Shown here: one piece after another, positions 4,961-48,086 of the stretch
Layout: each line of letters starts with the position of its first letter
Numbering within the stretch: position 1 is the stretch's first letter
Origin: Acidimicrobiales bacterium
GTDB taxonomy: Bacteria > Actinomycetota > Acidimicrobiia > Acidimicrobiales > JAJPHE01
Direction: 5' to 3'
Length of the DNA: 48,123 nt
Assembly (NCBI GenBank): GCA_035533195.1
Contig: DATLUK010000295.1
Coordinates: forward strand, 1 to 48,123
The notes under the pieces: model-generated
Told to the model about the DNA's origin: nothing
What the model saw: the letters and a program-made list of their open reading frames with translations, nothing else
The model's database searches: none
Program-made: the position numbers and the translations under genes

Positions 4961-5215
4961 GGGCCCCCTTAACCTCCCCCGGGCCCAACTCTTTGGCTCG
5001 ATGGCCCTCCGTTGCCTTCCCGGCATTCGCTGTCCATGCTCTAGACTTTATGTCTAGCGGAGCCCGGCTGGCAAGCTGATCTTGACCCGACAGCCTGGAA
5101 GCTCTTGGACGACGGGCCTCCGGCAGTGTGGGGGATCTCGGTCCTACCGGGCATTGCCCCGGCTTCCCCAGGGTGGCGATCAGCGGCTTGTCCGGCCGTG
5201 TTCCCCCGTCCGGTA

Positions 5216-5229
5216 TAGAACAGGTTCTG
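5216..5229. promoter_or_regulatory. KstR-type (TnnAACnnGTTnnA) operator-like palindrome in the BVMO/amidohydrolase divergent region
   Basis: TAGAACAGGTTCTG matches TAGAAC-nn-GTTCTA at 13 of 14 positions. It lies 32-59 nt upstream of the amidohydrolase start candidates. Confidence 0.5.
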
Positions 5230-30132: not shown

Positions 30133-31089
30133 ATGCCGTTAGATCCTGAGGTGGACGCACTACTTGCCCAGATGGCGGAGGCCCGGACTAGGCGGCTGTG
30201 GGAGTCATCCGTCGACGAAGCCCGGGCCGCGGTCGACTTGGCACCCCGGCGTCCGGGACGCCCCATGGCAGAGGTCACCGACTTGCAGGTAGCCGGCGGA
30301 GACGGCCGCATCCCGGCGCGACTCTACCGCCCGGCCCAAGAGCCCATCCTGCCCGGCCTGGTCTACTTCCACGGTGGCGGCTGGGTGCTGTGCGGACTCG
30401 ACTCGCACGACGGCACGTGCCGAGCGATCGCCGACCAGGCCGGCTGCGTGGTGCTCTCGGTCGACTACCGCCTGGCCCCGGAACACCACTTCCCTGCCGC
30501 CGTGGAGGACGCAGTGGCCTCAGCCAGCTGGTTCGCGGAGCACGCCAAGGATCTCGGTGTAGATCCGCAGCGGATCGCGGTTGGAGGGGACAGCGCCGGC
30601 GCCAACCTGGCCGCCGTGGTGGCCCTCCGGGCGCGGAATGAGGGTCGGCGTCCGTTCCTGCAGCAGCTCCTCATCTACCCGGTTACGGATTACGACTTCG
30701 AGCGGCCGTCCATGCTGGACCCTGGAGACGACCGGGTCCTCACCGCGGAGGACATGCGATGGTTCTGGAGCCACTATCTGGACGACCCACTGGCGGGGCA
30801 CCACGTGGACGCGTCGCCGCTGCGCGCCGACCTATCCGGCCTACCACCCACGATCGTGGTCACTGCTGAATACGATCCTCTGCGGGACGACGGTTCGGCG
30901 TACGCGGCCCGGCTGGCCGAGTACGGCGTCCCGGTGGAGCATCTCACCGCTGACGGCATGCCCCACGGATTCATCGGCATGGCCGACATCGTCCGGTCGG
31001 CCGGAGATCATCTCGAACGCTTCGCGGACCTGCTCGCAGCCGGTTTCCGCACCCCCCTATCCACCATTACCCATGACGGAGGTGCCTGA
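30133..31089 (+). CDS. Alpha/beta hydrolase, hormone-sensitive-lipase-type esterase/lipase
   Basis: Oxyanion motif HGGGW, nucleophile elbow GDSAGANLA and a downstream DPLRDD...H consistent with the Asp/His of the triad. Confidence 0.9.
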
Positions 31090-31891
31090 CGTGCCCGATG
31101 CCATCGTCGAACGTGACGGCCATGTGATGACGATCACCATGAATCGTCCTAAGCGCTTCAACGCGCTTTCGGGCGCCATGCTCATCCGGATGTACGACGC
31201 CATGGTCGAGGCTTCGAATGACCCGGAGATCCGAGCGATAATCCTCACCGGCGCTGGTGGGAACTTCTGCTCGGGGGCCGACCTGCGGGCCATGAGCGGC
31301 GACGCCGAGGACACCGACGGCGAGATCGACGTCGAGGCCAGGAATGCAGCCGAGCCGGGACTCGGGATGAAGGCGCTGCTGCGGGACTGGAGGCCGACCA
31401 AGCCGGTCATCGCCGCGGTCGAGGGCGTCGCTATTGCTGGAGGCACCGAGATTCTCCAGGGCACGGACATCCGGGTAGGCGCCCAGGGCGCCCGATTCGG
31501 GGTAAGCGAGGCCCGCTGGTCGCTGTACCCGATGGCCGGCTCGGCCGTCCGCCTACGCCGGCAGATCCCTTACACAGTGGCGGCCGACATCCTTCTTACG
31601 GCCAAGCACGTAACGGCCGAGGAGGCGTACCGCATCGGCCTGATCGCCTATCTGGTACCCGACGGCCAGGCACTGGCCAAAGCCCGCGAAGTAGCCGAAG
31701 TCATCGCTGGCAACGGCCCGCTGGCCGTGGCTGCGATCCTCAAGACTCTCCACGAGACCGACGGCATGACCGAGAAGGAGGCGCTGGCCTACGAACTCGA
31801 ATACGGCCGGGCGGTCTTCAGCTCGAACGATGCCAAGGAGGGCCCGCTGGCATTCAGCGAGAAACGGCGCCCGGTGTTCACCGGCTCGTGA
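31073..31891 (+). CDS. Enoyl-CoA hydratase/isomerase (crotonase family)
   Basis: [29 protein letters not shown] and [16 protein letters not shown] take the start at ATG 31073 (MTEVPD...), which overlaps the esterase 3' end by 17 nt. The ORF-track entry 30581-31891 is the same frame extended 5'. Confidence 0.9.
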
Positions 31892-31940: not shown

Positions 31941-33026
31941 ATGAAGGCAGCCGTCCTCCACCACAGCCCCGGTGAGCTGTCGATCGAAGACGTATCGCTG
32001 GACAAGCCGGGCCCCAGGGAAGTCCTCGTACGCGTGGCCGCGACCGGACTGTGCCACAGCGACCTCCACTACCTGGAGCGGGCCTACGAGCTGAAGGGCC
32101 CGATGATCCTCGGTCACGAAGGAGCCGGAAGGGTGGAGGCGGTGGGATCCGATGTCACCTATGTCAGGCCCGGTGACCACGTCATCGCGTACCTCGCCGG
32201 ATTCTGCGGGTCCTGCGAGTGGTGCCTGGCTGGTCGCATGACCCTCTGCCCTCGCGTCGGACTGAGCCGCGGCAACGACGAGGCACCGAGAATCCGGCTG
32301 TCGGACGGCCGCCCCTGCCTCCAGTTTGCCGGCCTGTCGACCTTCGCCGAGGAGATGCTCATCCACGAGAACACAGTCGTCAAGATCGATCCGGACATCC
32401 CACTCGATCGGGCGGCCCTGGTCGGCTGCGCCGTGCCGACCGGGGTCGGGGCGGTGATCCGGACGGCCAAGGTCACACCGGGCGCCACTGTCGCGGTGAT
32501 CGGATGCGGAGGCGTCGGGCTCAACTGCATCCAGGGAGCGGTCATCGCCGGCGCCCGGCGCATCGTGGCCATCGACATCAACGACGGCAAGTTGGCTACG
32601 GCCAGGGACTTCGGGGCGACGGACACGATCAACAATTCAGACGGCACCGCGCTCGAGCAGCTGGACGCCTGTCTGCCCGGGGAAGGCGGGGTCGACTACT
32701 CGTTCGAGGCGCTCGGGAGTGCCCAGACCTACGAGCTGGCTTTCTCGATCCTTCGCCCGGGAGGCACGGCCACCGTGATCGGGGTGGCTTCGGGGACCTT
32801 CACGCTTCCCACGGGTCCCTTCCTTGCCGAGCGACGCATCCAGGGCTGCATCATGGGCTCGGTACGGTTCCGCCAGGACCTGCCGTACCTGCTGGATCTG
32901 TACCGCGCCGGACGGTTGAAGCTCGATGAGCTGGTGTCCAAACGGATACCTCTCGAGCAGATCAACGAGGGTTACGCGGCCATCAGTGACGGCTCAGTGG
33001 CCCGCTCCGTGGTCGTCTTCGACTAG
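31941..33026 (+). CDS. Zinc-dependent alcohol dehydrogenase (MDR superfamily)
   Basis: GLCHSDLH, GHEGAGRV, CGSCEWCLAGRMTLC and VIGCGGVGL. It is a paralogue of 27052-28128. Confidence 0.9.
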   Translation: MKAAVLHHSPGELSIEDVSLDKPGPREVLVRVAATGLCHSDLHYLERAYELKGPMILGHEGAGRVEAVGSDVTYVRPGDHVIAYLAGFCGSCEWCLAGRMTLCPRVGLSRGNDEAPRIRLSDGRPCLQFAGLSTFAEEMLIHENTVVKIDPDIPLDRAALVGCAVPTGVGAVIRTAKVTPGATVAVIGCGGVGLNCIQGAVIAGARRIVAIDINDGKLATARDFGATDTINNSDGTALEQLDACLPGEGGVDYSFEALGSAQTYELAFSILRPGGTATVIGVASGTFTLPTGPFLAERRIQGCIMGSVRFRQDLPYLLDLYRAGRLKLDELVSKRIPLEQINEGYAAISDGSVARSVVVFD

Positions 33027-35363: not shown

Positions 35364-36863
35364 TCAAATCGGTTCGAAACGAGGACCGCCGGCCTCCAGG
35401 CCGATCCGGACCTTGCTCCCGACCAGGTTGATCCCCGAGAGGTCTCTCGCCATCTCCCGGCTGCGGGGCTGTGCGCCAGATCTGGTGCCGTCGCCGAATT
35501 TCACTATCACGGGGGCATTGACGACCCCGGTCCGATTATGGGCGACGGTCATGGCCTCCACTTCGGCCACACCCTCGCGAGCCAGGTCGACGGGCACCCG
35601 CTTCTGATCCAATTCGGCCTCCACCCCGGAGCACCCATCGAAGCGCCACGGCTGAGGTGGCTCGGCGCCCGAGTAGATGCCCGCCGCGAAGTGGGAGATC
35701 AGGCCACCGAGTCCGACCACCATCCCGACACCGTCCGGCCTGGTCCTGCATTCCTCCACCATAGAAACGATCGCGTGGCAGACGTAGGCAGCTCCAGGGC
35801 CGCCGAAATAGGGAAGGCCTCCAGTAACCGTGAGACCCCGGGGATCCAGAGGGTCGAGTCCGATGGCTGCAGCCGACATCTGGACTGCCGAGGGGAAGCA
35901 GGAGTAGAAGTCGAAGAGGTCGATGTCCTCGACGTTGAGGCGGGCCGAGATGAGCGCCCGCTCCAGCGCCGCGCTCAGCCCACCGGAACGGTGGATGAAG
36001 GGTCTCTCCGATGGCGGCGCCGGCTCGTGGCAGGTGGTTCCCACCCACGGATAGACCCACTGCCCTTCGGGGATGCCGCAGGCGCGTGCTACCTCCGTGG
36101 TCGTTACCAGCACCGACGCAGCCAGATCGACGGTCGGAAAGGCGTTCATGACCTTGGTGTACGGCTCGTTGACCAGCCGATTGGCAACCGAGACGGCCGA
36201 GATCTCCTCGGCCTGGCGGGGGTTCGGGAACCAGGCGACGTTGGGCCGTCGAGCCGCAGCCGAGGTGAAGGGCGCCATCAAGCCCCCGAGCCAGATGCGT
36301 TGCTCGTCCAGCGATCGGCCTGCTTCAGCTGCAAAGACGCTTTCGACCATCGCAAAGCTGGTTCCGACGGCACGGATCCCGGCCGCAGTCTCGACTTCCG
36401 GTCCCTGGCGGTTCGGCTGGCGCGGGACGTCGGGGTCGACTTCGGTATTCTGCTCCAGCCCCGTGGACCTCCCCGGCGGCTCGAGCCCCGCCTGCCTGGC
36501 CCTCCGCGCCGAGGCGTCGCCGACTCCGGCTACGAGTACCGCCGCCTCGAGCCGTCCAGCGACGATCTCGCTCACGGCATGGTTGAGACCCTCCTGGGGG
36601 CCGGAGCCGCTCCACCGCATGATCTCTCCGCGACCCTGGTGCAGCCCGGACCGGGTGCGTAGCCGCGCCAGGCTAGTGGGCGCATCGTCGTGGGTCGGCG
36701 GGGTGACATAGAGGCCGTCAATCCGCGAGCGGACATCGTGCCCGGCATCCGCAAGGGCCAGGTCGAGGGCCCCGTGGAGCAAATCGTCGGGGTGCAGGAT
36801 CCGGTCCGGGTCCTTGTTCGCCACCTGACCCACCCCAACGATCACCGCCGTCCGATGCGACAT
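35364..36863 (-). CDS. Thiolase-like protein fused to a C-terminal OB-fold (DUF35-like) domain
   Basis: 499 aa. N-terminus AVIVGVGQVANKD and a later GGLPYFGGPGAAY resemble SCP-x/Ltp-type thiolase folds. The C-terminal ~100 aa (GVAEVEAMTVAHNRTGVVNAPVIVKFGDGTRSGAQ...LVGSKVRI) resembles the DUF35 OB-fold. I find no Cys at the expected nucleophile position (by-eye alignment). Confidence 0.75.
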   Translation of the reverse strand: MSHRTAVIVGVGQVANKDPDRILHPDDLLHGALDLALADAGHDVRSRIDGLYVTPPTHDDAPTSLARLRTRSGLHQGRGEIMRWSGSGPQEGLNHAVSEIVAGRLEAAVLVAGVGDASARRARQAGLEPPGRSTGLEQNTEVDPDVPRQPNRQGPEVETAAGIRAVGTSFAMVESVFAAEAGRSLDEQRIWLGGLMAPFTSAAARRPNVAWFPNPRQAEEISAVSVANRLVNEPYTKVMNAFPTVDLAASVLVTTTEVARACGIPEGQWVYPWVGTTCHEPAPPSERPFIHRSGGLSAALERALISARLNVEDIDLFDFYSCFPSAVQMSAAAIGLDPLDPRGLTVTGGLPYFGGPGAAYVCHAIVSMVEECRTRPDGVGMVVGLGGLISHFAAGIYSGAEPPQPWRFDGCSGVEAELDQKRVPVDLAREGVAEVEAMTVAHNRTGVVNAPVIVKFGDGTRSGAQPRSREMARDLSGINLVGSKVRIGLEAGGPRFEPI

Positions 36864-36912: not shown

Positions 36913-37683
36913 ATGGTAGAGTGTATGTCTACCAACGGCCAGGCAAGTCAGCGTGGGCCTGTTGGCGGGGGACGTCTTGGGGTCGGAGTACACTCTCTTG
37001 ACATGCGATCGAATGAGCATGCGCGCGCTCCGGTGATCAGTCTCAGGGAAGAGCAGAAGCGGCTCACTCGCCGGCGCCTGCTGGATTCCGCCCACGAGGT
37101 CTTTTCTGCCAAGGGATACGTGGCTGCGACGGTCGATGACATCGTGGCGGGTGCCGGCGCCAGCAGGGCCACCTTCTATCTGCACTTCTCGAGCAAGCTC
37201 GAGATCCTGTTCGAGGTGTCAGCGGCCGTCACGGATGAGACCGCCGAGTACTACGCGACGCTCGACGAGGCCCTTGCCGAGGGGTCCCGGGCGTCGCTCG
37301 AGGCGGCCATCGACGGGATCATCGGCTGGTTCGAGGAGCACAGCGGATTGATGCAGGCCTGGGGTGAGGCCGCCATGGTCGAGCCGGAGGTCGCCCGTAA
37401 GGCTCGCCACCGGGTCGAGGAGTTCTTCGACGCCATGCCTTACCTTCGGTCCAGCTGGCCCAAGGCCCGGCAGGAGCAGGCTCGCCTCCGGCTCTCCCTC
37501 TTCCTGATGCAGCTCGAGCGGTTCTTCCAAAGGCTCGCAGTCATGGGAGAGTGGGATGCGCCGCGTAAGGTGCTCGTGGAGGTGCTCGCCGACGTCTGGT
37601 CTGAAGGCTTCCTTCCCGCTTCGTCGTCGGCCGCCCCAGCACGAAAGCGCGCTCTCAGGAGACCTGCCTCCGCTGCCGTATAG
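36913..37683 (+). CDS. TetR-family transcriptional regulator
   Basis: HTH region RRRLLDSAHEVFSAKGYVAATVDDIVAGAGASRATFYLHFSSK. Alternative starts are ATG 36925 and ATG 37003 (MRSNEH...). Confidence 0.9.
   Translation: MVECMSTNGQASQRGPVGGGRLGVGVHSLDMRSNEHARAPVISLREEQKRLTRRRLLDSAHEVFSAKGYVAATVDDIVAGAGASRATFYLHFSSKLEILFEVSAAVTDETAEYYATLDEALAEGSRASLEAAIDGIIGWFEEHSGLMQAWGEAAMVEPEVARKARHRVEEFFDAMPYLRSSWPKARQEQARLRLSLFLMQLERFFQRLAVMGEWDAPRKVLVEVLADVWSEGFLPASSSAAPARKRALRRPASAAV
36914..36934. promoter_or_regulatory. Candidate TetR operator: TGGTAGA-N7-TCTACCA inverted repeat
   Basis: Perfect 7-bp arms (36914-36920 and 36928-36934), preceded by TCTAGA (36908-36913), between the divergent thiolase-like and TetR genes. 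It is intergenic only if the TetR gene starts at ATG 37003. Confidence 0.4.
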
Positions 37684-37734: not shown

Positions 37735-38622
37735 TTAGTGGCGGGTGGGGTCATCGAGCTTGAAGACGCGGATGGCGTTTTCGCGCAGGAACTTGGGCCA
37801 TACCCCGGGGTTGAACGGGACGTTCGGCATGTCCCGGAACTGACGCTCAAGGGTCAGTCCTGCGGGGAAGTACCCGCAGTACATGACCTTGTCGGAGCCC
37901 CGAGTATTGGCATAGGTGATGATGTCCTTCGGGTAGTGCTTTGGCGCGAACGCGCTCGTCATGTAGTGCAGGCCGGGCCACTTGAGCATAAGCTTGGTCG
38001 CCAGGAAGGTCCACGGCTCACCCCCGTGCATCATCACGATCGTCAGATCGGGAAAGTCGTAGCAGACCTCGTCGAAGTGCTCGACGTGCTGGGGCGCAAA
38101 GGGCATCCGAGGACCGACCACCCCACCATTGATACAGATGGGGATATCCAACTCGACGCACTTGGAGTAGATCGGGTACATCTTCTTGTCATTGACTGCC
38201 ACCTGGGGGAAGCAGCCACAGGGAAAGCAGGTCACGGCCACGATGTCGTGTTCCCGCTTGGCCGCTTCCATAGCCCGCAGCGAGTCGACGCCCTGGTTGG
38301 GATCCACCGACATCGAGAGGAAGAACCGCCCCGGGTGCTCGTGCTTAGCTCGTAGACCGTTGGGCGACATATGGGTCATCGCCATCTCGATGTTGAACTC
38401 GTCCATCTTGGTTACGACCCAAGCGACGGGATCCACATCCGCGTCCACCAGGTCGGGTACGTCCTTGAACATGTACTGAGCTGGGAACTCGAACTCTTTG
38501 GCGCTCTGGCGATCCTTTAACAAGGGCCGAAAGAAGTCGTAGGCGGCCTTCTTATCCTCGACGCTCTGGTAGGGGAAGCCGATCCCGAGGTCGACGATCC
38601 CGATGTCCGTAGGCATGCTCAC
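37735..38622 (-). CDS. Amidohydrolase-2 family metal-dependent hydrolase
   Basis: 295 aa with IGIVDLGIGFP, TIVMMHGGEPW and a TIM-barrel-like alternation of strands and helices. It is the last gene of the DUF35/thiolase-like operon. A GGAGA RBS lies upstream. Confidence 0.8.
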   Translation of the reverse strand: MSMPTDIGIVDLGIGFPYQSVEDKKAAYDFFRPLLKDRQSAKEFEFPAQYMFKDVPDLVDADVDPVAWVVTKMDEFNIEMAMTHMSPNGLRAKHEHPGRFFLSMSVDPNQGVDSLRAMEAAKREHDIVAVTCFPCGCFPQVAVNDKKMYPIYSKCVELDIPICINGGVVGPRMPFAPQHVEHFDEVCYDFPDLTIVMMHGGEPWTFLATKLMLKWPGLHYMTSAFAPKHYPKDIITYANTRGSDKVMYCGYFPAGLTLERQFRDMPNVPFNPGVWPKFLRENAIRVFKLDDPTRH

Positions 38623-38705
38623 CGCTTGGGTCTCCTGTCAGTCGGCGTCGACGGTGGCGCCCTGAAGGCGCGGCAGCGTGTCAATGTACCTCTCGACCGA
38701 GACGC

Positions 38706-39857
38706 TCAGCTCGGCGGCTCGGAGCGCAGCACTCCCATGGCGAAGTACTGGGCGGCGCCACCATAGGCCTGAGCCAGGGCAGTGCGCACACCCTCGACCT
38801 GGTGCTCACCGGCCAGTCCCCGTACCTGCAGTGCGGCCTCGGCGAAGCGGACCGCCCCCGAGGCCCCTATGGCGTTGGTCGAGAGGACCCCACCGGAGGG
38901 ATTAACGGGGAAGGCGCCGTCGAGGTCGGTCTCGCCCGAGTCCACCATCTTCCACCCCTCACCCGGCCCCGCGATGTCGTGACCCTCGAGCCACATAGGC
39001 TCGTACCAGCTGAACGGAACGTACAACTCGGCCATGTCGATCTCTCGCCGGGGGTCGGTGATGCCGGCCTGGCGATAGACATCGTGGGCGCACTCGACAC
39101 CGGCTTGGGGGCGCACCGGATTTCGCCCCGGGAATTGACCCAACTCGCTGCGGATTGACAAGCCGTGGATCCACGCCGGAGGTCGAGGTGCCCGCTTAGC
39201 CCCGGCCTCGTTAGTGATGATCACCGCGCAGGCTCCGTCCGACGACGGACACGACTCGTGCAGGCGGAGGGGATCCCACAGCATCGGAGACTCCTGCACC
39301 ATCTCTAGGGTGATGTCAGGCATCTTGAGGTGGGCGTAGGGGTTCTTGGCGGCATTACGCCGGTCCTTTACCGCCACCATCCACCCGATGTAGTCAGGTG
39401 CCTTGGACTCCTGGATGTAGGAACGTATCCACGGAGCGAAGGCGCCCCCCGCACCTATACCACCGGAGCGCCCGCCCGCCAGACCCCACTGAGCGTTGCC
39501 CTCGGACTGCTTCTCCCAGGCGACGGCGAGCACCCGTTCGTGAACCCCGGTGATCACGTGATGGGCTCCCACGATAACGGTCGACCCACCCACCGAACCG
39601 GCGGTGTGCACTCGCAGCAGGGGCTTGTTGGTGGCCCCGAGCGCATCGGCTAAGAAGATCTCGGGCATCACGACGCCCTCGAACGCATCGGGCGCCTTGC
39701 CAATCACGACAGCGTCTATGTCCTTGATGCTAAGTTCGGCGTCCTCTAGCGCCCTATCCACCGCCTCGCGGAGCAGGCCTGGTATGGATACGTCGTCTCG
39801 GCGCTTCTTGAAGTTGGTCTGACCGACCCCGATGATGGCGCTGCGCTCGTTCGTCAC
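38706..39857 (-). CDS. Thiolase-like lipid-transfer protein (SCP-x/Ltp3-like), no obvious nucleophile Cys
   Basis: 383 aa with SAIIGVGQTNFKKR, VHTAGSVGGSTV (where thiolases carry C-x-S/T-G) and a C-terminal NPSGGVLSTNAIGASG. The GTG start shares a GTGA overlap with the upstream gene. Confidence 0.85.
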   Translation of the reverse strand: MTNERSAIIGVGQTNFKKRRDDVSIPGLLREAVDRALEDAELSIKDIDAVVIGKAPDAFEGVVMPEIFLADALGATNKPLLRVHTAGSVGGSTVIVGAHHVITGVHERVLAVAWEKQSEGNAQWGLAGGRSGGIGAGGAFAPWIRSYIQESKAPDYIGWMVAVKDRRNAAKNPYAHLKMPDITLEMVQESPMLWDPLRLHESCPSSDGACAVIITNEAGAKRAPRPPAWIHGLSIRSELGQFPGRNPVRPQAGVECAHDVYRQAGITDPRREIDMAELYVPFSWYEPMWLEGHDIAGPGEGWKMVDSGETDLDGAFPVNPSGGVLSTNAIGASGAVRFAEAALQVRGLAGEHQVEGVRTALAQAYGGAAQYFAMGVLRSEPPS

Positions 39858-40912
39858 TCACCCTCCAAAAGACAAATCAGGTTTTGTTGCAGCAACGGAC
39901 CGCTGGTGGCGTGGGCAAGGCCTCGGTTGGCGGAACCGTCCACGATGCGAGAGGCCACCTCCACGATTCGGACCAGGCCCACGGCCATGATCGGGTTTCC
40001 GGCCAGGGGGCCGCCCGAGGGGTTGATGTTGGTGTCCACGCCGAGGCCGAGTGATTCCCGCAGAACGATCTCCTGGGGACTGAACGTGGAGGACAGCTCG
40101 ACGACGTCGAGCGGCCCTCCGTCGTAGCCGGCCTTCCGAGCGGCCAGGGTGGTCGACGACGATGTCGTGATGTCCCTGACACCCGGCTGGTGGGCCTCGA
40201 CACGATGGTCGAATCCCCGGATCCAGGCCGGCCGCGAGCACAACTGCCGTGCCTTGTCCCCGCGAGCGAGGATCACGGCCACGGCCGCGTCCGAGATCGG
40301 CGGAAGGTCGTGCTTGCGCAGGGGTGCCCGGTAGTAGGGCTCGGCCAGCAAGGTGTCGACGTCCACATCACCCGCCTGCTGGGCGTTGGGGTTGGTCTTG
40401 GCCTGGCCCCGACTGCGGGCCACTACGGCGGCGAAGTCCCGCTCGGTAGCCTTGCCGGAGTCGAGAAGCGCCCGGGCCTGGATGCCTGCCAGCGACACGG
40501 GGTCGACGCCCAGAGGGGCCAGGTAATAGGGATCCAGCTGCTGAGCCCACACCTCGCCGGGATCAGATGGGGACGACTTGCCCGACCCAAAGGCCAGGGC
40601 TATGTCGATGTCGCCCTCCTGCAGGCGCAACCATGCCTCATACAGGGCCCAGGCCCCGTCGGCCTCGACGTGGGACTCGGAGATGGGGGGCCATGCCCCG
40701 GCAGCCTCGAGGTTGGATACGAACGCAAAGGGCCCGCCCGTGAGGTAGTCACAGCTCCCGGCGCAGGTGAAGCCAATCTCCCGACGCTCGATGCCGGCGC
40801 TTGCGATGGCCTCGGTCACAGTGGGGACGAGGAGTTGCACCTCGCTCTGGTTGCATTCGCGCCGCGACGGTGTCTGGGCGAAGCCGACAATGGCGATATC
40901 GGTGGCGGGCAT
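39854..40912 (-). CDS. Thiolase-like lipid-transfer protein (Ltp4-like), no obvious nucleophile Cys
   Basis: 352 aa from ATG 40912 (MPATDIAIVGFAQTP...), with a C-terminal NPSGGPLAGNPIMAVG. By eye, the expected nucleophile position reads HVEADGAW. The start overlaps the upstream stop (TGATG). Confidence 0.85.
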   Translation of the reverse strand: MPATDIAIVGFAQTPSRRECNQSEVQLLVPTVTEAIASAGIERREIGFTCAGSCDYLTGGPFAFVSNLEAAGAWPPISESHVEADGAWALYEAWLRLQEGDIDIALAFGSGKSSPSDPGEVWAQQLDPYYLAPLGVDPVSLAGIQARALLDSGKATERDFAAVVARSRGQAKTNPNAQQAGDVDVDTLLAEPYYRAPLRKHDLPPISDAAVAVILARGDKARQLCSRPAWIRGFDHRVEAHQPGVRDITTSSSTTLAARKAGYDGGPLDVVELSSTFSPQEIVLRESLGLGVDTNINPSGGPLAGNPIMAVGLVRIVEVASRIVDGSANRGLAHATSGPLLQQNLICLLEGE

Positions 40913-41463
40913 CAGAAGGTGTGCTCCTTGAATATGTCTTCGGTGGCATCGGGCTCGCCCGTGGCCTCGAAGGCCTCGATGACCGAATCGAGCCCGCCCC
41001 ACCCCCGATTAGAGATGCCTTGGACCGTGCGCTCACCCTTGGGTTTCCAAACGGCCCTGACCCGCAATCCCGCTCGCAGCTGCTCATGCGGGACACCTAC
41101 GATGTCCATGCCGCCCAGCGGCGTGTCGGCCCCATCGAGCAGTACGGAGGCGTACACGAAGGCCTCGGTCTCCTCTTGACCGTAGTAGGCGACGGGAGTG
41201 ACGATGGTGAAGCCAGTGAGGGTACCCGTGTCGGCCACCTCGACCTCGTCCCGCTCCTCGGTCGCCACGACGCATAGCGGGCAGTAGCCCTTCGACGGGA
41301 CATACACCCGCCCACAGGAGGGGCACTTGTGGCCCACGATATTTCCGTCGAGGAGGCAATCCGCGAAGCGGTTGAGGTTCGGCGTCAACCGCTCCCGGTA
41401 GGTGAGGGAGACCAAGTGCTCCATCACCATGTTTTCCTTCTTAACCTCGGTAGTGTCGCTCAT
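40912..41463 (-). CDS. DUF35 OB-fold protein with an N-terminal rubredoxin-like zinc ribbon
   Basis: 183 aa from ATG 41463. The zinc ribbon is CPSCGRVYVPSKGYCPLC (CxxC-x10-CxxC). The OB-fold follows (GTLTGFTIVTP...ASVLLDGADTPLGGMDIVGV...GLRVRAVWKPK). Confidence 0.8.
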   Translation of the reverse strand: MSDTTEVKKENMVMEHLVSLTYRERLTPNLNRFADCLLDGNIVGHKCPSCGRVYVPSKGYCPLCVVATEERDEVEVADTGTLTGFTIVTPVAYYGQEETEAFVYASVLLDGADTPLGGMDIVGVPHEQLRAGLRVRAVWKPKGERTVQGISNRGWGGLDSVIEAFEATGEPDATEDIFKEHTF

Positions 41464-41465
41464 AT

Positions 41466-41903
41466 CTATGCCGGCTCCCAGGCCTCGAGGTCGGTGACCA
41501 GGCCCATCGGCTCCTTGCGGAAGCGAGGGACCACCTTCATGCCGGTCGACATCGCGTCGATGCTCCCGGCGTCCACCGCGTGGACCATGGCCGTGTCGGC
41601 TCCGTCCACCTTGATAAGGGCGAAAGCAAAGGGCCGCTCCAGGGGGTGCTTGGGGGCAGGCTCCGCCACCCAGGTCCACGCCTGAACCGTTGCCTGCGGC
41701 CCGACCGGCACCAGGTCGGTCCCAAGCGACTCACCCGTTTCAGGGTCGTACTCGGGCGGCGGGACGATCACCCGCCCGTCCTTGCCCTTGATGCCCATCA
41801 ACCGCCCCTCACGCAGACCCCCGAGGAATGCACCCACGACAGGACCCGTCGTCCGGCTATAAGGGAACTCAAGTTTCGTCTCGATCACTCTCATCTCGGT
41901 CAC
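41466..41903 (-). CDS. DUF35-like OB-fold protein with a degenerate, Cys-free ribbon
   Basis: 145 aa with no cysteine. The ribbon position reads GIKGKDGRVIVPPPEYDPETGES. The OB-fold follows (ATVQAWTWV...FAFALIKVDGADTAMVHAVD...GMKVVPRF). The start is GTG 41903 or ATG 41894. Confidence 0.7.
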   Translation of the reverse strand: MTEMRVIETKLEFPYSRTTGPVVGAFLGGLREGRLMGIKGKDGRVIVPPPEYDPETGESLGTDLVPVGPQATVQAWTWVAEPAPKHPLERPFAFALIKVDGADTAMVHAVDAGSIDAMSTGMKVVPRFRKEPMGLVTDLEAWEPA

Positions 41904-41912
41904 CCTGGGGAT

Positions 41913-41926
41913 TAGAACACATTCTA
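41913..41926. promoter_or_regulatory. KstR-type operator-like palindrome between the DUF35/Ltp operon and the divergent LLM gene
   Basis: TAGAACACATTCTA matches TAGAAC-nn-GTTCTA at 13 of 14 positions. It lies 10 nt upstream of the GTG 41903 start. Confidence 0.55.
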
Positions 41927-42253
41927 TTTATGACGGCAAGTGGCGTGGCCTAAGGGATGATCGCGGCCCGCATAGCCATAGCCGAGGCGTCCAGGCGGGG
42001 CTTGTCCCTGTCCTGGACGACGGGTGCGCTCAGTACGGCGTCCTTCAGTCGGGAAGGTCCTCTGGAGGCCGGACCACGACCCCCTGAGCGGTGATGTCGT
42101 CCTACATCCCGGGGCCGGCCACCTCCCCGACCAGGCGTCGGACTGGCTCCGCGACACGCTGGTTGCGTGGGTGACAACCGTTCTGTCCGGTGCTCGGCCT
42201 GATCGCCCGCCCTCGGATAGCCTCGCCCGCCAAGATGACCGAAGGAGTCGCCC

Positions 42254-43291
42254 ATGAAACTCGGCCTGCAACTCGGATATTGGCAGGCGCAGCCGCCCGC
42301 TGACGCGCTCGACAAGATCCTTGAGGCGGAGAAGCTCGGCTTCGACATTGTCTTCACCGCCGAGTCTTGGGGCTCCGACGCCTTTAGCCCCCTGGCCTGG
42401 TGGGGGGCGTCCACCAGCCGCATCCGACTGGGCACCGCCATCGTGCAGATGTCGGCCCGGACACCCACGTCGACGGCCATGCACGCGCTGACCATCGACC
42501 ACCTGTCTTCTGGGCGCCTGGTTCTCGGCCTGGGTCTGTCCGGTCCCCAGGTGGTGGAGGGCTGGTACGGCCAGCCCTTTGGCAAGCCTCTCGCCCGGAC
42601 GCGGGAATACCTGGACATTGTGCGCCAAGTGCTGGTTCGCGAGGGTCCCGTCACCAGCCCCGGGCCCCACTTCCCGCTTCCCTACAACGGTCCCAACGCC
42701 GTCGGTCTGGGTAAGGCACTCAGACCGATCACCCATCCGCTCCGGGCCGATCTACCGATATGGCTCGGTTCTGAAGGGCCCAAGAACGTGGCACTCACCG
42801 CGGAGATCGCCGACGGCTGGCTGCCCATCTACTACTCCCCCAAAGTGAGTGACATGTATCAGTCGTGGCTAAACGAGGGCTTCGCCCGACCCAGTGCTCG
42901 GAGCACGCCCGAGAGGTTCGAGATCGCCAGCAATTGTTCAGTTGTGATCACCGACGAGCGCGACAAGGCCCTCGAGTCGATGAGACCGGGGCTGGGCTTC
43001 TATATCGGAGGCATGGGAGCCAAGGACATGAACTTCCACAAGAACGTCTTCTCGCGCATGGGCTACGAGAAGGAGGCAGACCAGATCCAGGACCTCTTCT
43101 TCGAGGGCAAGCGCGACGAGGCGGTGGCGTCCGTCCCTCTCGACATGGTGGCCGACATCTCCCTGGTAGGAAGCCGCCAACAGATCCGGGCCGAGCTGCC
43201 GATGTGGGAGGAGGCCGGCGTCACCATGCTCGTCATCGGTGCCCGTAGCCTGGACGAGATGCGCGACGTGGCCGAGGTGATCCTGGGTTAG
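42254..43291 (+). CDS. LLM-class (luciferase-like) F420-dependent oxidoreductase, intact
   Basis: 345 aa with MKLGLQLGYW, FTAESWGSDAF, GLGLSGPQVVEGWYG and a C-terminal TIM-barrel pattern. An AAGGAG RBS lies upstream. Confidence 0.9.
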   Translation: MKLGLQLGYWQAQPPADALDKILEAEKLGFDIVFTAESWGSDAFSPLAWWGASTSRIRLGTAIVQMSARTPTSTAMHALTIDHLSSGRLVLGLGLSGPQVVEGWYGQPFGKPLARTREYLDIVRQVLVREGPVTSPGPHFPLPYNGPNAVGLGKALRPITHPLRADLPIWLGSEGPKNVALTAEIADGWLPIYYSPKVSDMYQSWLNEGFARPSARSTPERFEIASNCSVVITDERDKALESMRPGLGFYIGGMGAKDMNFHKNVFSRMGYEKEADQIQDLFFEGKRDEAVASVPLDMVADISLVGSRQQIRAELPMWEEAGVTMLVIGARSLDEMRDVAEVILG

Positions 43292-44308: not shown

Positions 44309-44965
44309 TCACCGAGCCATCCCCGCAGGCGCGGTGTCGCGGGGGCGGATAAAGACGCCCTCGGCTTCGGCCGTGATTTGCCCGCCGACGGTGATCGCCC
44401 CCCAGACCTTGACCCGGCGTCCCTCTACGGACAGGAGCCGGGCCTCGAGGCCGAGCTCGGTGGCGATCGGAGTGCCCTGCCGGTACCGGATGGTGAGCGT
44501 ACCCGTGAAGCCGGGGCTTCCGGCCACCACCGCGCCCATGCCCAGCACCTGATCAAGGATGGCTGACACCACCCCCCCGTGGACCAACCCTGGAGGGCCC
44601 ATATAGGCGGGCCCGCAATAGACCCGGCCCACTACAGCTTCACCGTCGGTCCGCAAGTGAAGGTCGGGCGCCAGGGGGTTGTAGGTGCCGACGACGGGGT
44701 TGACCGGCATCAAACGGCCCAGGTCATTGCCGAAGTCGGCGGCCACCATGCCACCAGTGCGCCCATTAGCCATCCGCGCTCCCCAGGGGTCGGCGTCGGT
44801 GGCCGCCTCCAATCGTTCGGCCAGGCGGCCGGCCTCGGCCACCGCTGTCGTTAGTTCCTCCCCGTCGATACCCGTCACGACCACAGCGTCGGCCACCCGG
44901 TTGAGGGCTCGGGCTAGTGCCTCGAGGGCCTCCAGGCGCAGGACGTGGGCCCGGTCACCCATCAT
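44309..44965 (-). CDS. PaaI-family (hotdog-fold) thioesterase with a helical N-terminal extension
   Basis: 218 aa with [17 protein letters not shown] and a C-terminal beta-rich hotdog pattern. ATGA overlap with the upstream gene. Confidence 0.8.
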
Positions 44966-45510
44966 CGGCCCTTGAACACGGAAGTGCGCTTCTCCATGAA
45001 GGCCTGCGGTCTCTCCTTGGCATCCTCGGTCATGAACACCTCCCTGCCGATACGGTTCTCGATGCGCATCGCTTCGTCCTCGGACACCCCGAACCGGGCA
45101 CTCTCCCCCGGCACCCGGATGTCGGTGGCCTGGAGGATCTCGGTGCCACCGGCTACGGCCGGGCCCTCCACGGCAGCTATAAGGGGCTTGGTGAGCCGGA
45201 ATCCCTTGAGCAGGGACTTGATCACCCCATCGGCCAGGCCGCCGTCCGACGAGGTATCCGATTGCTCAGCCCTGAACGAGTCACCGGGGTGTTGTCGGGT
45301 CATGGCCTTCAGATCGGCGCCGGCGCAAAAGCGGCTTCCCGCGCCGGTGAGAATGCCGACGCGGATATCGGGATTGGAGTTGATCTCGTCCCACGCCTCC
45401 CCGAGGAGCTGGGTCATTTCTGGCGACAGGGCGTTGCGCGCCTCGGGTCGGTTAATGGTCAGCACCAGGGTGTGGCCGACCATCTCGGTCAACCGGTGAG
45501 ATGCGCTCAT
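44962..45510 (-). CDS. Crotonase-family protein carrying a ~85-aa in-frame internal deletion (possibly non-functional)
   Basis: 182 aa from ATG 45510 (AGGAG RBS). It is collinear with the 31073-31891 paralogue through ...[33 protein letters not shown]. It then jumps directly to the last ~38 residues ([31 protein letters not shown]). Confidence 0.7.
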
Positions 45511-45656: not shown

Positions 45657-48086
45657 CTACTCGGCCGGCTCGGTGACCTCGAGGACACCCGCCTTGACCA
45701 GCTCCTCAATATGATCGTCGTCAAGGCCGAGGAGGTCCCGGGCGATCTCCCGGCTGTGCTCGCCCAGCCAGGGTGCAGGCCCAATGAAGGGGTCGCCCAT
45801 GCCGCTGGCGTGGAAGGCCGGCCCCTCGAAGGTCATTCTGCCGACCCCGGGCTGCACCCGCTCGACCAGGTAGCCGCGCGCCTGCAGGTGGGGGTCGCCC
45901 GGCTCGTCACTGGAGTAGGTCATCATGGCCGCCGGCACACCGTGGGCCTGCAGATGCTCCATGACCACCCGGTCGGGCCGGTCGGAGGTCCACTCCTCTA
46001 TGCGCCGGTCGACCTCGTCATGACGGGCCCGGCGGCCTTCGATCGTCTGGAGGCCGGCGTCAGCGGCCCAGTCGGGATCACCGAGGGCGTGGCGCAAGCA
46101 GGCCCAGTCCTCGTCGTCCCGGCAGGTGATCACGCACCAGCGCTCCTCTCCCTGACAGCGGTAGACCCCCCATGGCGCTCCTCGCTCGCTTCGGTTGCCC
46201 TGGGGCTTCACTGAGCCGGGTTCCAGACCCTCCTGCAGGAAGTAGTGCGACATCATGCCTAGCACCGTCTCCACCTGGGCCACCTCTACGTGAGCACCCC
46301 CTCCGGTCCCGACCCCACGCTGTCGTCCGATGAGGGCGGCCAGGGCCCCGACCGCACACAAACGGCCAGCCACGTGATCTGGGAAGATGACCATGGCACC
46401 AGGGGGCATACCTCCACCCGGGAAGTTCCACAGCCAGGTCATGCCTCCCGCCGGACGGGTGCTGGGGCCGTAACCGAGCCAATCCGCCCAGGGACCGCTC
46501 GAACCCATCAGCTGGCTACTCACCATGACCAGACCCCGGTTGATCTGCGCAAGGGTCTCGTAACCCAACCCCATGTCGTCCATGGTCCCAGTCGAGTTGT
46601 TCTCGATCACCACATCGACCTGAGCCGCTAGGCGGTGGACGAGCTCGAGACCCTCGGGCGTCTTGAGATTGACACCGAGGCTGCGCTTGGAGCGGCTGGA
46701 GGAGGCAAAGGAAGCGCTGGTCTCACCACCGGACACCAAGCGGATGAAGTCGGGGTAGGTGCGGCTTTCCACTTTGATGACGTCAGCACCGTATTCGGCG
46801 AAGAGACGTCCCGCCTCCACCCCCACGCCGCCATGGCCGAAGTCGAGGACGAGCAGGCCCCGGAAGGGCAGATGGTGATCGCCTTGGCGAACCCCATCGG
46901 GGGCGACGTCGCTTCCAGCCGGGTCCCGCACGCCGGCCGCCTCGGTCCATGAGGACTCGACCTCGGCGTCGTGCTCCCCCAGGGCTGGTGCCCGGTGACG
47001 GAACCCGGCCCGCTGTCCATCCAGCTCGAAGAAGCTGGAGGCCAGCGGCCCCCGGACGCCGGGGGCAACCTCGGCGGCGACGAAGGACCCCCGGGCAGCG
47101 AAGTGCTCGGCGCCGAGCACGGCTCCGGGATCCAGCACAGGGGTCATCACGATCCCTCGCTTCTGGGCCTCGGCGGACAACTCGGCCATGTTGCGGCCCG
47201 CGAAGAGCTCGCGAAACATCGGATCGAGGATGTCATCTTGGATGCTCACCCGTCCCATCAGGCTGTCCCAGTGCTCGTCCTGCAGAATCTCCGGCTCACC
47301 CAGCCAGGCTCGCATGGCGTGCCACTGGCGAGGGCTGAGGATCACCAGGCGGACGTACCCGTCGGCGCAAGGGTACAGTGGGTACACGAGACCGGACCCG
47401 GCCCGCACCTCGGCGTAGGCGCCACCGGCATTGCTGATGGAGCTGAAGTTGGGAAGGGCCCAGTCCGAGACCTGGGCCGTGGCTTCCAGGATCGACAGGT
47501 CGAGGTGCTGACCAGCGCCGGTGCGAAGCCGTTGCCAGTAGGCAGTCAGGCTGGCGAAAGCCCCCATGATCCCGGCAACGTCGTAGGCGAGAACGCCGGG
47601 GACAAGGAGGGGTGGCATATCGGGCACGCCTGAGCGGAATAGCTCACCGGCCAGGGCCACTAGCACCGGATCGGTCGCCTGCCAATCCTCGTATGGCCCG
47701 GTATGGCCGTAGTCGCTGATAGAAGTCACCACCAGGTGTCCGACACGCCGCGCCACCTCGGCAGGGTCGAAACCCACTTGGGCCAGCTGACCGGGGCGGG
47801 AGGTCTCCACCCAAACATCGGCCCGCTCAAGGAGACGGAGCAGGCGCCGACGGCCCCCCTCGGATTCGAGGTCGACCACCCCGCCCCGCTTGTTGAAGTT
47901 CCTCACCGCGTAATAGAGGCTGTGCTCCCCGTGGAACGGCGGCACGCGCCGAGACACAGAGCCCCCGGCCGGCTCCAGGCGCACCACATCGGCCCCCAGG
48001 TCGGCCAGGAGGCGGCCACACAGCTCGCCCTTCTCATCGGCCATGTCCACGACCCGCAGGCCGTGCAGGGGCAACTCATCGATCAC
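45657..48086 (-). CDS. Tandem (two-module) family III CaiB/BaiF CoA-transferase, 809 aa (paralogue of 16483-18966)
   Basis: Module 1: [36 protein letters not shown]...AYDVAG. Module 2: [39 protein letters not shown]...FPDHVAG. The GTG start has GGAGG 11 nt upstream. Confidence 0.88.

Follow-up and report, generated by a model that had tools for sequence, protein, structure and literature searches.

A putative heteromeric lyase locus of the Ltp3/Ltp4 type, with two separate DUF35 genes, in an Acidimicrobiales metagenome-assembled genome

The window, meaning the entire stretch of 48,123 nucleotides that was analysed, derives from an Acidimicrobiales metagenome-assembled genome. Open reading frames on its minus strand encode, in this order, DUF35-A (41466-41903; 145 aa, no cysteine), DUF35-B (40912-41463; 183 aa), an Ltp4-like thiolase-fold protein (39854-40912; 352 aa), an Ltp3-like thiolase-fold protein (38706-39857; 383 aa), and an Amidohydro_2 protein (37735-38622; 295 aa). 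A luciferase-like (F420-type) oxidoreductase of the Rv3520c family, referred to below as the LLM oxidoreductase, is encoded divergently on the plus strand (42254-43291). Direct reading of the sequence gave a 2-nt gap between DUF35-A and DUF35-B (TAG-AT-ATG), a 1-nt overlap between DUF35-B and the Ltp4-like gene (TGATG), and a 4-nt overlap between the Ltp4-like and Ltp3-like genes (GTGA), while the Ltp3-like gene and the amidohydrolase gene are separated by 83 nt containing a GGAGA Shine-Dalgarno-like sequence. All five minus-strand genes, the four junctions and the divergent oxidoreductase were present as described in the initial annotation. The gene caller placed the start of DUF35-A at an ATG three codons downstream, which shortens the protein to 142 aa.

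Domain and family assignments were made with Pfam and NCBIfam, supplemented by an AlphaFold2 fold for the 352-aa protein, and those proposed earlier held. The Ltp4-like protein scored 478 bits with NF005924 (PRK07937, lipid-transfer protein; cut-off 419), its Pfam thiolase matches all being below threshold; its model (pLDDT 88) best matched DUF35-bound thiolase-fold proteins, with a TM score of 0.91 to one of them, 6ET9. The Ltp3-like protein matched NF006180 (PRK08313) with 598 bits (cut-off 514) as well as Thiolase_N and Thiolase_C_1 of Pfam. The LLM oxidoreductase, which carries the Pfam domain Bac_luciferase, scored 486 bits against TIGR03559 (F420_Rv3520c; cut-off 335). Cysteines occur in both thiolase-fold proteins (3 and 5), none of them at a catalytic position.

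The locus was compared with 80 related loci from genome bins of Actinomycetota, Myxococcota and Spirochaetota, and with loci of Nocardia and Tsukamurella. The order and strand of DUF35A-DUF35B-Ltp4-Ltp3 were kept in approximately 78 of the 80 loci, and an LLM oxidoreductase more than 50% identical to the present one was rarely found beside this core (approximately 3 of 80). In Nocardia farcinica, a divergent LLM gene is followed by a fused DUF35 gene, ltp4 and ltp3, with identities of 63, 50, 48 and 61%, respectively. A steroid cluster of Tsukamurella encodes an Ltp4 and an Ltp3 that fall into the same families (NF005924, 593 bits; NF006180, 734 bits), together with EchA19, a P450 and a 'steroid 3-ketoacyl-CoA thiolase'. 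The Ltp4-like protein is 48% identical to the Ltp4 proteins of both Nocardia and Tsukamurella, and the Ltp3-like protein is 59-61% identical to Mycobacteriales Ltp3. The fused DUF35 proteins of these two genera are single polypeptides of roughly 300 aa, similar to Rv3521, which we take to be two fused DUF35 domains in 303 aa.

The proposed synteny with the Rv3520c / Rv3521-ltp4-ltp3 segment of Mycobacterium tuberculosis is thus upheld by NCBIfam scores above curated cut-offs, by the Nocardia and Tsukamurella comparison, and by a conserved KstR operator, and on these sequence comparisons the four-gene unit is identified as an Acidimicrobiales orthologue of the actinobacterial Rv3521-ltp4-ltp3 genes. 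The segment shares with its counterparts in M. tuberculosis and Rhodococcus rhodochrous DSM 43269 (ltp3/ltp4) the Ltp4, Ltp3 and LLM subfamilies, the gene order, the divergent LLM gene, the two upstream DUF35 domains and the position of the KstR-type box. It differs in that the host belongs to the Acidimicrobiales rather than the Mycobacteriales, identity is only 48-63%, DUF35 is encoded by two genes, an amidohydrolase gene follows ltp3, and the contig is without genes for steroid ring degradation. The biochemical function of the mycobacterial locus had been regarded as unassigned in the initial annotation; however, passages of PMC6678751 and PMC7807495 that cite Wilbrink 2012 report ltp3 and ltp4 to be essential for the degradation of C24-branched sterol side chains, and by the same account Ltp3-Ltp4 has already been called a heteromeric aldol-lyase. 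The Ltp3/Ltp4 locus is widespread, is genetically linked to branch removal from plant-sterol side chains, and probably encodes an enzyme of four parts that cleaves C-C bonds.

In the intergenic region between DUF35-A and the divergent LLM gene lies the palindrome TAGAACACATTCTA (41913-41926, no strand assigned), 10 nt upstream of the GTG that starts DUF35-A and differing at one position from the KstR-type operator TAGAACNNGTTCTA, in agreement with the KstR-like box noted earlier at the 5' end of the operon. Three matches with no more than two mismatches to the operator were found in the window against 0.22 expected. Among the related loci, 20 of 79 have such a box upstream of DUF35-A, and boxes were enriched about 10-fold within 400 nt upstream of that gene (23 in 33 kb compared with 72 in 1051 kb). 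The same intergenic region holds the box AAGAACCTGTTCTA in N. farcinica and, between Rv3520c and Rv3521 of M. tuberculosis, where the region is EMSA-positive, the sequence GTTAGAACCTGTTCTACTCG (PMC1995591). The DUF35-A/DUF35-B/Ltp4/Ltp3 unit is probably under the control of a KstR-type repressor. The TetR gene adjacent on the 48-kb contig is not KstR-like.

DUF35-B carries zf-ChsH2 and OB_ChsH2_C (Pfam); its zinc ribbon, CPSC-x10-CPLC, is of the canonical C4 type, and the protein can be aligned with 3IRB and with 6ESQ_E, the DUF35 subunit of the archaeal thiolase/HMG-CoA synthase complex, with matching cysteine ligands. DUF35-A is a paralogue of DUF35-B in which OB_ChsH2_C is the sole Pfam domain (34.9 bits); the ribbons of the two proteins align, and the cysteine ligands are substituted (KG-KDGRVIVPPPEYDP versus KCPSCGRVYVPSKGYCPLC). 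The top PDB matches of its AlphaFold2 model (pLDDT 84) were 6OK1_B, the ChsH2-DUF35 of the Ltp2 aldolase, and 9MYR_B, the Shy-DUF35 of the Sal aldolase. DUF35-A consists of a degenerate ribbon plus an OB fold and, having no cysteine, lacks a zinc site, as had been proposed for one of the two subunits, and a CxxC...CxxC ribbon was found in none of 79 DUF35-A orthologues. The ligands of DUF35-B orthologues vary, with C4 in approximately 30, C3 plus Asp in approximately 27, and all lost in approximately 17. Nor is the separation of the two domains special: of 78 loci, 43 have them as two genes and 35 as a fusion, which makes the split a common variant.

Alignment to solved thiolases placed Gly87 of the Ltp3-like protein (HTAGSVGG) and Glu83 of the Ltp4-like protein (HVEADGAW) at the position of the nucleophilic cysteine, so that the loss read by eye in both proteins is borne out, and a canonical Cys/His/Cys triad was found in neither. 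The sequence ELYVPFS of the Ltp3-like protein aligned with ELHDCFS of the SCP2-thiolase 6HSJ, which places Tyr279 at the first residue of the HDCF motif, and the His of the GHP motif is replaced by Asn in both proteins (Asn328 in the Ltp3-like protein). RVHTAGSVG and YVPFSW were invariant in 75-78 of 78 Ltp3-like orthologues, and N328 was invariant or nearly so. In the Ltp4-like protein the HDCF equivalent is SSTF, which varies within the family, and the aldolase tyrosine is absent; the family's conserved motif ESHVEMDGAW includes the Glu at the cysteine position. The aldolases TcLtp2 and CtSal both have Gly at the cysteine position, and their HDCF counterparts are Y294DHF and Y302DCY, of which the Tyr is the catalytic base (PMC12329534). 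Only the Ltp3-like protein has the aldolase-type Tyr, which makes it unlikely that the two thiolase-fold subunits are equivalent; judged by these residues, catalysis probably resides in the Ltp3-like protein, with the Ltp4-like protein as a probable auxiliary or non-catalytic partner. The highly conserved, acidic ESHVEMDGAW loop counts against catalysis by Ltp3 only, since Ltp4 could then house the active site or share in it.

By analogy with the solved aldolases, DUF35-A, DUF35-B and the Ltp4-like and Ltp3-like proteins seem on balance to form a heteromeric retro-aldol lyase acting on a CoA thioester; an aldolase or lyase had also been proposed initially, and the Gly and Tyr pattern together with the DUF35 partners makes this the best reading here. 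From the Ltp2-ChsH2(DUF35) and Sal-Shy(DUF35) structures we infer an assembly arranged as alpha-beta-beta-alpha, with a core Ltp3/Ltp4 heterodimer in which each thiolase-fold subunit would carry a DUF35 domain of its own as a cap. Cleavage of a C-C bond in a 3-hydroxyacyl-CoA would proceed by a retro-aldol reaction and not by thiolysis, with Tyr279 of YVPF acting as base on the beta-hydroxyl and Gly87, in place of the thiolase nucleophile, touching the hydroxyl through its backbone. The Ltp4-like protein and zinc-less DUF35-A would be structural or substrate-shaping partners. The substrate, produced by an EchA19-type hydratase, would be an acyl-CoA, beta-branched or bulky, that cannot undergo normal beta-oxidation because its beta-carbon is tertiary.

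The proposed lyase resembles Ltp2-ChsH2(DUF35) of Thermomonospora curvata (6OK1), a steroid side-chain aldolase, and Sal-Shy(DUF35) of Comamonas testosteroni (9MYR), a bile-acid aldolase (PMC12329534), in its SCP-x-type fold, Gly for Cys, Tyr at the first former HDCF position, and a DUF35 partner consisting of zinc ribbon and OB fold. The E values against 6OK1 (1.8e-20 for the Ltp3-like and 2.6e-4 for the Ltp4-like protein) reflect low sequence similarity, and Tyr and Phe are the sole residues that YVPF has in common with YDHF and YDCY. The general acids Tyr344 (Ltp2) and Cys304 (Sal) are absent, their positions being occupied by Asn328 and Pro281 in the Ltp3-like protein. Whereas the known aldolases are homodimers with two identical DUF35 subunits, two different thiolase-fold and two different DUF35 proteins occur here, one DUF35 never has zinc ligands, and DUF35 is not fused to a MaoC hydratase. 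The closest folds are those of DUF35-bound thiolases (TM 0.85-0.91 for the Ltp4-like model), whose C4-ribbon DUF35 aligns to DUF35-B; however, in these enzymes the catalytic Cys, His and Cys are intact and the chemistry is thiolysis or of the Claisen type, and no HMG-CoA synthase gene was found here.

The amidohydrolase (Amidohydro_2, 68 bits) had been grouped with the operon of the complex. Among solved structures it is closest to 3IRS (BB4693, of unknown function), and it also gave a weak match to the 4-oxalomesaconate hydratase 2GWG. Amidohydro_2 proteins include reversible decarboxylases and hydratases, and the gene could encode an integral fifth component, for example a decarboxylase, carboxylase or hydratase acting before or after the lyase. 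It lies on the same strand with its own Shine-Dalgarno sequence, no terminator-like hairpin was found in the 83-nt gap, and in approximately 8 of 80 loci, some of them in Myxococcota bins, a homologue is no further than 3.4 kb from the core. However, such a role is rather unlikely, given that about 90% of related loci, as well as those of Nocardia and Tsukamurella, lack the gene. A homologue in Acidimicrobiia EGI L10123 (75% identical) follows a TLP1-type gene with no Ltp3/4 nearby, another stands alone in a further genome, and a TLP1-type thiolase-like gene (35364-36863) adjoins the amidohydrolase here too. The amidohydrolase gene is outside the conserved unit and is possibly co-transcribed with it.

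The four core proteins could instead be a non-catalytic scaffold or lipid-binding module for neighbouring beta-oxidation enzymes (hydratase, dehydrogenase), with both thiolase-fold proteins as pseudoenzymes, much as DUF35 serves as a scaffold in the archaeal thiolase/HMG-CoA synthase complex. The canonical catalytic residues are all gone in both subunits, DUF35 domains are known scaffolds (PMC12329534, PMC10398937), and the zinc ligands are dispensable in many orthologues. We consider this quite unlikely, because the Ltp3 loops at the former active site are invariant across three phyla, which favours chemistry over mere binding, and because ltp3 and ltp4 mutants were, according to a passage of PMC6678751, blocked specifically on C24-branched sterols. 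It is very unlikely that Ser88 of HTAGSVGG serves as a non-cysteine nucleophile for acyl transfer, hydrolysis or a thiolase-like reaction. This residue adjoins the cysteine position and is invariant in 78 of 78 Ltp3-like orthologues, a Ser aligns at the cysteine position in 4YZO (ST0096), the closest solved relative, and serine nucleophiles are found in some thiolase-fold enzymes such as DpsC. The His and Asn/His partners for nucleophile activation and the oxyanion hole are replaced (Tyr279, Asn328), however, Gly plus Tyr is the pattern of two proven aldolases (PMC12329534), and the published genetic model, as cited in the passages named above, is an aldol-lyase. Ordinary thiolases (acetyl-CoA C-acyltransferases) with DUF35 accessory subunits, as suggested by the fold and DUF35 partnership of BbsAB and archaeal thiolases and by the JGI name 'acetyl-CoA C-acetyltransferase' of homologues, are scarcely tenable and already contradicted by the alignments, in which the nucleophilic Cys, HDCF His/Cys and GHP His are absent from both proteins and all orthologues examined.

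In the Acidimicrobiales host, the proposed retro-aldol lyase may act on a sterol side chain or on some other branched acyl-CoA (isoprenoid-like). A sterol substrate is unproven here because no steroid ring-degradation genes were found on the 48-kb contig and the TetR is not KstR-like. A carboxylase, which the textbook version of the C24-branch route requires, was not among the genes close to the core in any of the 80 loci. Recurrent neighbours of the core are a FadD19-type ligase (PRK07798), acyl-CoA dehydrogenases, a PRK07791 SDR and EchA19-like hydratases, and the PRK07798 domain is present in FadD18/FadD19 (PMC11201411). An intact EchA19-like enoyl-CoA hydratase of 266 aa (31091-31891, plus strand) matched NF005864 (PRK07799) with 381 bits (cut-off 316) and the EchA19 model with 352 bits, below its cut-off of 400. 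It is 69% identical to hydratases adjoining the core in other loci, and is a candidate supplier of the 3-hydroxyacyl-CoA substrate. A similar hydratase gene lies directly downstream of Ltp3 in approximately 12-13 related loci. An EchA19-like remnant of 182 aa (44962-45510, minus strand) can be aligned in a single frame with two parts of a 279-aa relative, residues 18-153 and 238-279, corresponding to an internal deletion of about 85 aa, and is possibly a former hydratase partner. A second LLM gene of the Rv3520c family is located at 15358-16299.

The window corresponds to contig k141_569535 of ENA sample ERZ27256801, and its proteins match identically those listed by NCBI for an Acidimicrobiales metagenome-assembled genome. 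Five genes on the minus strand were found where the initial annotation had placed them. These encode an OB-only DUF35 protein with no cysteine at all (DUF35-A; 145 aa, 41466-41903), a DUF35 protein with a canonical CPSC-x10-CPLC ribbon (DUF35-B; 183 aa, 40912-41463), a divergent thiolase-fold protein (Ltp4-like; 352 aa, 39854-40912), a clear thiolase-fold protein (Ltp3-like; 383 aa, 38706-39857), and an amidohydrolase of the Pfam Amidohydro_2 family (295 aa, 37735-38622). A luciferase-like F420-type oxidoreductase (LLM) is encoded on the plus strand at 42254-43291, divergent to the operon. The junctions that had been claimed, when read from the sequence, were exact (TAG-AT-ATG, a TGATG overlap, a GTGA overlap, and an 83-nt gap), and the domain assignments were confirmed by Pfam HMM search, in which the 352-aa protein remained under the thresholds. 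The thiolase fold of Ltp3-like was assigned from sequence and that of Ltp4-like from predicted structure, using an AlphaFold2 model (pLDDT 88, pTM 0.90) that gave TM-scores of up to 0.91 against DUF35-bound thiolases. Simple scans of the 83-nt gap before the amidohydrolase gene showed neither a terminator nor a promoter, a result that is uninformative in a high-GC actinobacterium.

Judged by its sequence, the locus belongs to the kind represented by Rv3520c / Rv3521-ltp4-ltp3, a part of the M. tuberculosis cholesterol regulon, and is not a new kind of system. The genes and domains that define this kind, among them an Ltp4-type protein of about 353 aa and an Ltp3-type protein of about 390 aa, were all found in the window, and the operator has a candidate counterpart. 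Ltp4-like matched the NCBIfam lipid-transfer protein model NF005924 over its full length (478 bits, cut-off 419), Ltp3-like matched NF006180 (598 bits, cut-off 514), and the LLM matched TIGR03559, F420_Rv3520c (486 bits, cut-off 335). Comparison with the Mycobacteriales was made using records of a plasmid collection, from Nocardia farcinica (unannotated) and Tsukamurella tyrosinosolvens, in place of M. tuberculosis. In N. farcinica, the LLM gene (63% identity) is transcribed away from a gene for a fused double DUF35, which is accompanied by Ltp4 (48%) and Ltp3 (61%). Tsukamurella carries a 309-aa OB-fold protein followed by two thiolase-domain genes matching NF005924 (593 bits) and NF006180 (734 bits), in a cluster that also holds EchA19 (428 bits against a cut-off of 400), an Rv3520c-family LLM, a P450, and a 'steroid 3-ketoacyl-CoA thiolase'. 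Overall, identity to the Mycobacteriales proteins was 48% for Ltp4-like and 59-61% for Ltp3-like, the gene of which lies immediately 3' of the Ltp4-like gene with the GTGA overlap. The two DUF35 domains form one protein in the Mycobacteriales locus, whereas in the window they are encoded by two genes, likewise directly upstream of ltp4; DUF35-A and DUF35-B match the N- and C-terminal halves, respectively, of the fusion proteins found in Nocardia and Tsukamurella. The synteny with the mycobacterial locus that the initial annotation had put forward is therefore upheld by the agreement of orthology, gene order, and operator position. A second Rv3520c-family LLM is present at 15358-16299 on the minus strand (TIGR03559, 463 bits), and since this type is multi-copy in the window, the presence of one copy beside the DUF35 operon is less telling than it looks at first sight.

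Conservation was assessed by searching the species genomes of GTDB with an alignment of Ltp4-like proteins, which yielded at least 597 loci. The comparison set consisted of the best 80 of these, all with at least 55% identity and none from Mycobacterium; most were from Acidimicrobiia, and the rest were from Streptomycetaceae, Frankia, Embleya, Blastococcus, and bins of Myxococcota and Spirochaetaceae. The order DUF35-A, DUF35-B, Ltp4, Ltp3 on one strand was found in approximately 78 of the 80, and proteins of the Rv3521 type are thus an integral, conserved component of the unit. The split of the DUF35 pair noted in the initial annotation is real and typical of the lineage, because all close relatives of the window DUF35-A have 138-186 aa (mostly 146-153 aa), but it is not unusual: the pair is separate in 43 of 78 loci and in one reading frame in 35. 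The soluble-looking, naturally split version in the window could make it easier to co-express the four proteins. An Rv3520c-type LLM with more than 50% identity was near the core in only about 3 of the 80 loci. The recurrent neighbors were a PRK07798-type acyl-CoA synthetase (32 loci), an acyl-CoA dehydrogenase (30), a PRK07791 SDR (27), an EchA19-like hydratase (13), a nitronate-monooxygenase-like protein (11), and a P450 (9); PRK07798 is the domain of FadD18/FadD19 (PMC11201411). Among the recurrent neighbor clusters of the 80 loci, the carboxylase genes predicted by the textbook C24-branch route were absent. A Rieske-type oxygenase with a weak match (62 bits) to 4beta-methylsterol monooxygenase was located near the core in five loci (L037, 13931-14911, and four others), one of which is in a deltaproteobacterial bin.

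Catalytic residues were aligned with those of the solved thiolases of P. furiosus (7YVY), archaeal 6ESQ, BbsB (7PXP), and zebrafish SCP2-thiolase (6HSJ). An HMG-CoA-synthase-type complex was rejected on residues and gene content. A canonical thiolase, including the DUF35-partnered BbsB and archaeal types, is excluded for both proteins because all of the thiolase catalytic residues are replaced, and neither they nor their orthologs have the Cys/His/Cys triad. The nucleophilic Cys, reported earlier as missing by eye, is Gly87 in Ltp3-like (RVHTAGSVGG) and Glu83 in Ltp4-like (HVEADGAW); the GHP His is Asn328 and Asn, respectively; and the HDCF motif, which like the CxG Cys is lost, reads Y279-V-P-F in Ltp3-like and S-S-T-F in Ltp4-like. 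In the thiolase-fold retro-aldolases, which also have a DUF35 partner, the HDCF of SCP-2 thiolase corresponds to Y294DHF in T. curvata Ltp2 and Y302DCY in C. testosteroni Sal, where the Tyr is the catalytic base and a Gly in place of the Cys makes a backbone contact with the hydroxyl of the substrate (PMC12329534). Tyr279 was equated with this Tyr through the SCP2-thiolase HDCF alignment and the published motif correspondence, not through direct alignment with 6OK1 or 9MYR.

Ltp3-like has the Gly at the Cys position in common with Ltp2 and Sal, and its Tyr279 aligns with the head of their motif. Compared with their Y-D-(H/C)-(F/Y), YVPF keeps the Tyr and the aromatic residue but not the Asp or the His/Cys. 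The position of the Sal general acid Cys304 (and of His296) is Pro281 in Ltp3-like, while that of the Ltp2 general acid Tyr344 (Gln352) is likely to be Asn328 by spacing, as Asn328 lies 49 residues after Tyr279 and the equivalent spacing is 50 in both Ltp2 and Sal. By alignment and spacing, the general acids Tyr344 and Cys304 have no counterpart in Ltp3-like. Since the motif and the general acid differ, the locus falls outside the Ltp2 and Sal subfamilies, yet by analogy it would be akin to these aldolases in mechanism. Across 78 sequences, RVHTAGSVG, YVPFSW, and Asn328 of Ltp3-like were invariant or nearly so. Among Ltp4-like orthologs the HDCF-equivalent loop was variable and the loop ESHVEMDGAW was strongly conserved. 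From these residue patterns we infer that the active site is in Ltp3, with Ltp4 as an auxiliary partner; an active site that is shared or based in Ltp4 is a possible alternative.

DUF35-A and DUF35-B are paralogs with 31% identity over 109 residues, and their ribbon regions align. As had been predicted, one of them has lost its zinc site: all four Cys ligands are substituted in DUF35-A, and the C4 ribbon was found in 0 of 79 of its orthologs. The structures that best matched the DUF35-A model (pLDDT 84) were 6OK1_B and 9MYR_B, the DUF35 chains of the aldolases Ltp2 and Sal. In alignments of DUF35-B, the Cys ligands coincided with those of 3IRB and of the DUF35 subunit in the archaeal thiolase/HMG-CoA synthase complex. 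In 78 related loci, the DUF35-B ribbon ligands were C4 in about 30, Cys3+Asp in about 27, and absent in about 17, so that the family does not depend on zinc. In approximately one fifth of the genomes, the usual zinc binding is possible for neither DUF35 domain. In the Ltp2/Sal type, a DUF35 domain in stable complex with the aldolase shapes the substrate cleft. A similar complex may form in the window, where the genes adjoin one another and are translationally coupled, with the DUF35 pair fused in relatives and the folds matching. The presence of two distinct subunits of each type suggests, by analogy with the solved alpha-beta-beta-alpha complexes, a one-to-one pairing.

Between the LLM and DUF35 genes, a KstR-type box, TAGAACACATTCTA, is located at 41913-41926 and ends 10 nt before the first start codon. 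It differs from the KstR core TnnAACnnGTTnnA at one position (A for G), has a single mismatch to the KstR palindrome TAGAAC-NN-GTTCTA, and is a candidate operator by its sequence. The N. farcinica region between the LLM and double-DUF35 genes holds the box AAGAACCTGTTCTA, and that between Rv3520c and Rv3521 of M. tuberculosis holds GTTAGAACCTGTTCTACTCG, for which KstR binding was reported in gel-shift assays (PMC1995591). KstR-type boxes were enriched approximately 10-fold within 400 nt upstream of DUF35-A and occurred in 20 of 79 loci, including those from Myxococcota and Spirochaetaceae bins. In the window, 3 KstR-like near-matches were observed and 0.22 were expected. A second box with one mismatch, TAGAACAGGTTCTG, lies at 5216-5229 between a Baeyer-Villiger-type flavin monooxygenase (3311-5026, minus strand) and a 402-aa Amidohydro_2 protein (5261-6469, plus strand), and suggests a wider KstR-type regulon on the contig. 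No KstR gene was found on the 48-kb contig. The adjacent TetR (36913-37683) was rejected as KstR, its best matches being of the FasR and ScbR types, and it had no homologs near the core in the best 80 of the at least 597 loci. It is unrelated to the TetR found approximately 2-2.2 kb upstream of the core in 14 related loci (for example L018, 3916-4569), for which KstR was the best NCBIfam match at 82 bits, far under the cut-off of 280.

The amidohydrolase, which had been counted as an operon member of the system, is peripheral to the unit: no more than about 8 of the 80 loci have it close to the core. The family is highly conserved, and its closest solved relative is 3IRS, the function of which is not known. 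In Acidimicrobiia bacterium EGI L10123, a 75%-identical homolog directly follows a TLP1-type thiolase-like gene (the pair at L085, 6392-8876), in a cluster with CoA-transferase, hydratase, ligase, and dehydrogenase genes from which Ltp3/4 is absent; in one more genome the homolog is isolated. The window has a TLP1-type thiolase-like gene at 35364-36863 (minus strand; 499 aa, non-canonical, below all NCBIfam cut-offs), just past the neighboring TetR. The amidohydrolase is probably co-transcribed with the core in the window, and is more likely tied to this TLP1-type module than to the core.

To the observed orthology, synteny, residue patterns, and folds is added the proposal that the four polypeptides would assemble into one heteromeric enzyme, that Tyr279 would be the base in a retro-aldol cleavage of a 3-hydroxyacyl-CoA, and that the substrate would be a beta-branched or bulky acyl-CoA. 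In the published model, Ltp3-Ltp4 catalyzes an aldol cleavage where the side chains of sitosterol and campesterol branch at C24, once the substrate has been activated with CoA by FadD19, desaturated, carboxylated, and hydrated (PMC6678751); reviews describe ltp3/ltp4 as required for growth on these C24-branched sterols (PMC6678751, PMC7807495). The kind is thus already known, but without enzymology: the literature searched contained no biochemical or structural study of Ltp3/Ltp4, and a single paper in it names both ltp4 and DUF35, without linking them. This step of sterol side-chain degradation is relevant to industrial phytosterol-to-steroid conversion. What is added here is a family-wide picture, in which the double DUF35 is integral, the pattern of catalytic residues is asymmetric, and the distribution, with a KstR-type operator, covers three phyla. 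Also added is a testable architecture in which the thiolase-fold subunits are of two kinds, as are the DUF35 domains, and a single Tyr is the candidate for catalysis. The unit, often with the operator, is distributed far outside the known steroid degraders. A tentative and rather doubtful extension pictures a pseudo-symmetric lyase of four domains whose only active site is in Ltp3 (Tyr279), with Ltp4 catalytically dead and one DUF35 obligately zinc-less. Outside the classical steroid degraders (Acidimicrobiia, Myxococcota, and Spirochaetota; at least 597 species-level genomes), this lyase would be a general 'beta-branch remover' acting on branched or isoprenoid-type acyl-CoAs, beyond plant sterols. 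If true, this would be a widespread and so far unrecognized bypass of blocked beta-oxidation.

Further lipid-catabolic genes in the window encode a P450, a Baeyer-Villiger-type monooxygenase, a LipP1-type esterase, two alcohol dehydrogenases, an acyl-CoA ligase, an intact EchA19-like hydratase, two fused family-III CoA-transferases, and the second Rv3520c-type LLM. By its gene content, the 48-kb window is a branched-lipid catabolic island in which no steroid ring-degradation genes were found; a sterol side chain may be the substrate here. The EchA19-like hydratase upstream of the LLM (44962-45510, minus strand) is probably degenerate because of an in-frame internal deletion of approximately 85 residues; the intact copy (31091-31891, plus strand) lies 13 kb away, beside the esterase, an alcohol dehydrogenase, and the acyl-CoA ligase. 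The double-domain CoA-transferases are both on the minus strand, at 45657-48086 (809 aa) and at 16483-18966 (827 aa), the latter adjoining the second LLM. The BVMO-like monooxygenase, the P450, the two Zn-dependent alcohol dehydrogenases, and the LipP1-type esterase are encoded at 3311-5026, 25783-27021, 27052-28128, 30133-31089, and 31941-33026; speculatively, this set would fit a ketone to ester to alcohol route for a retro-aldol ketone product.
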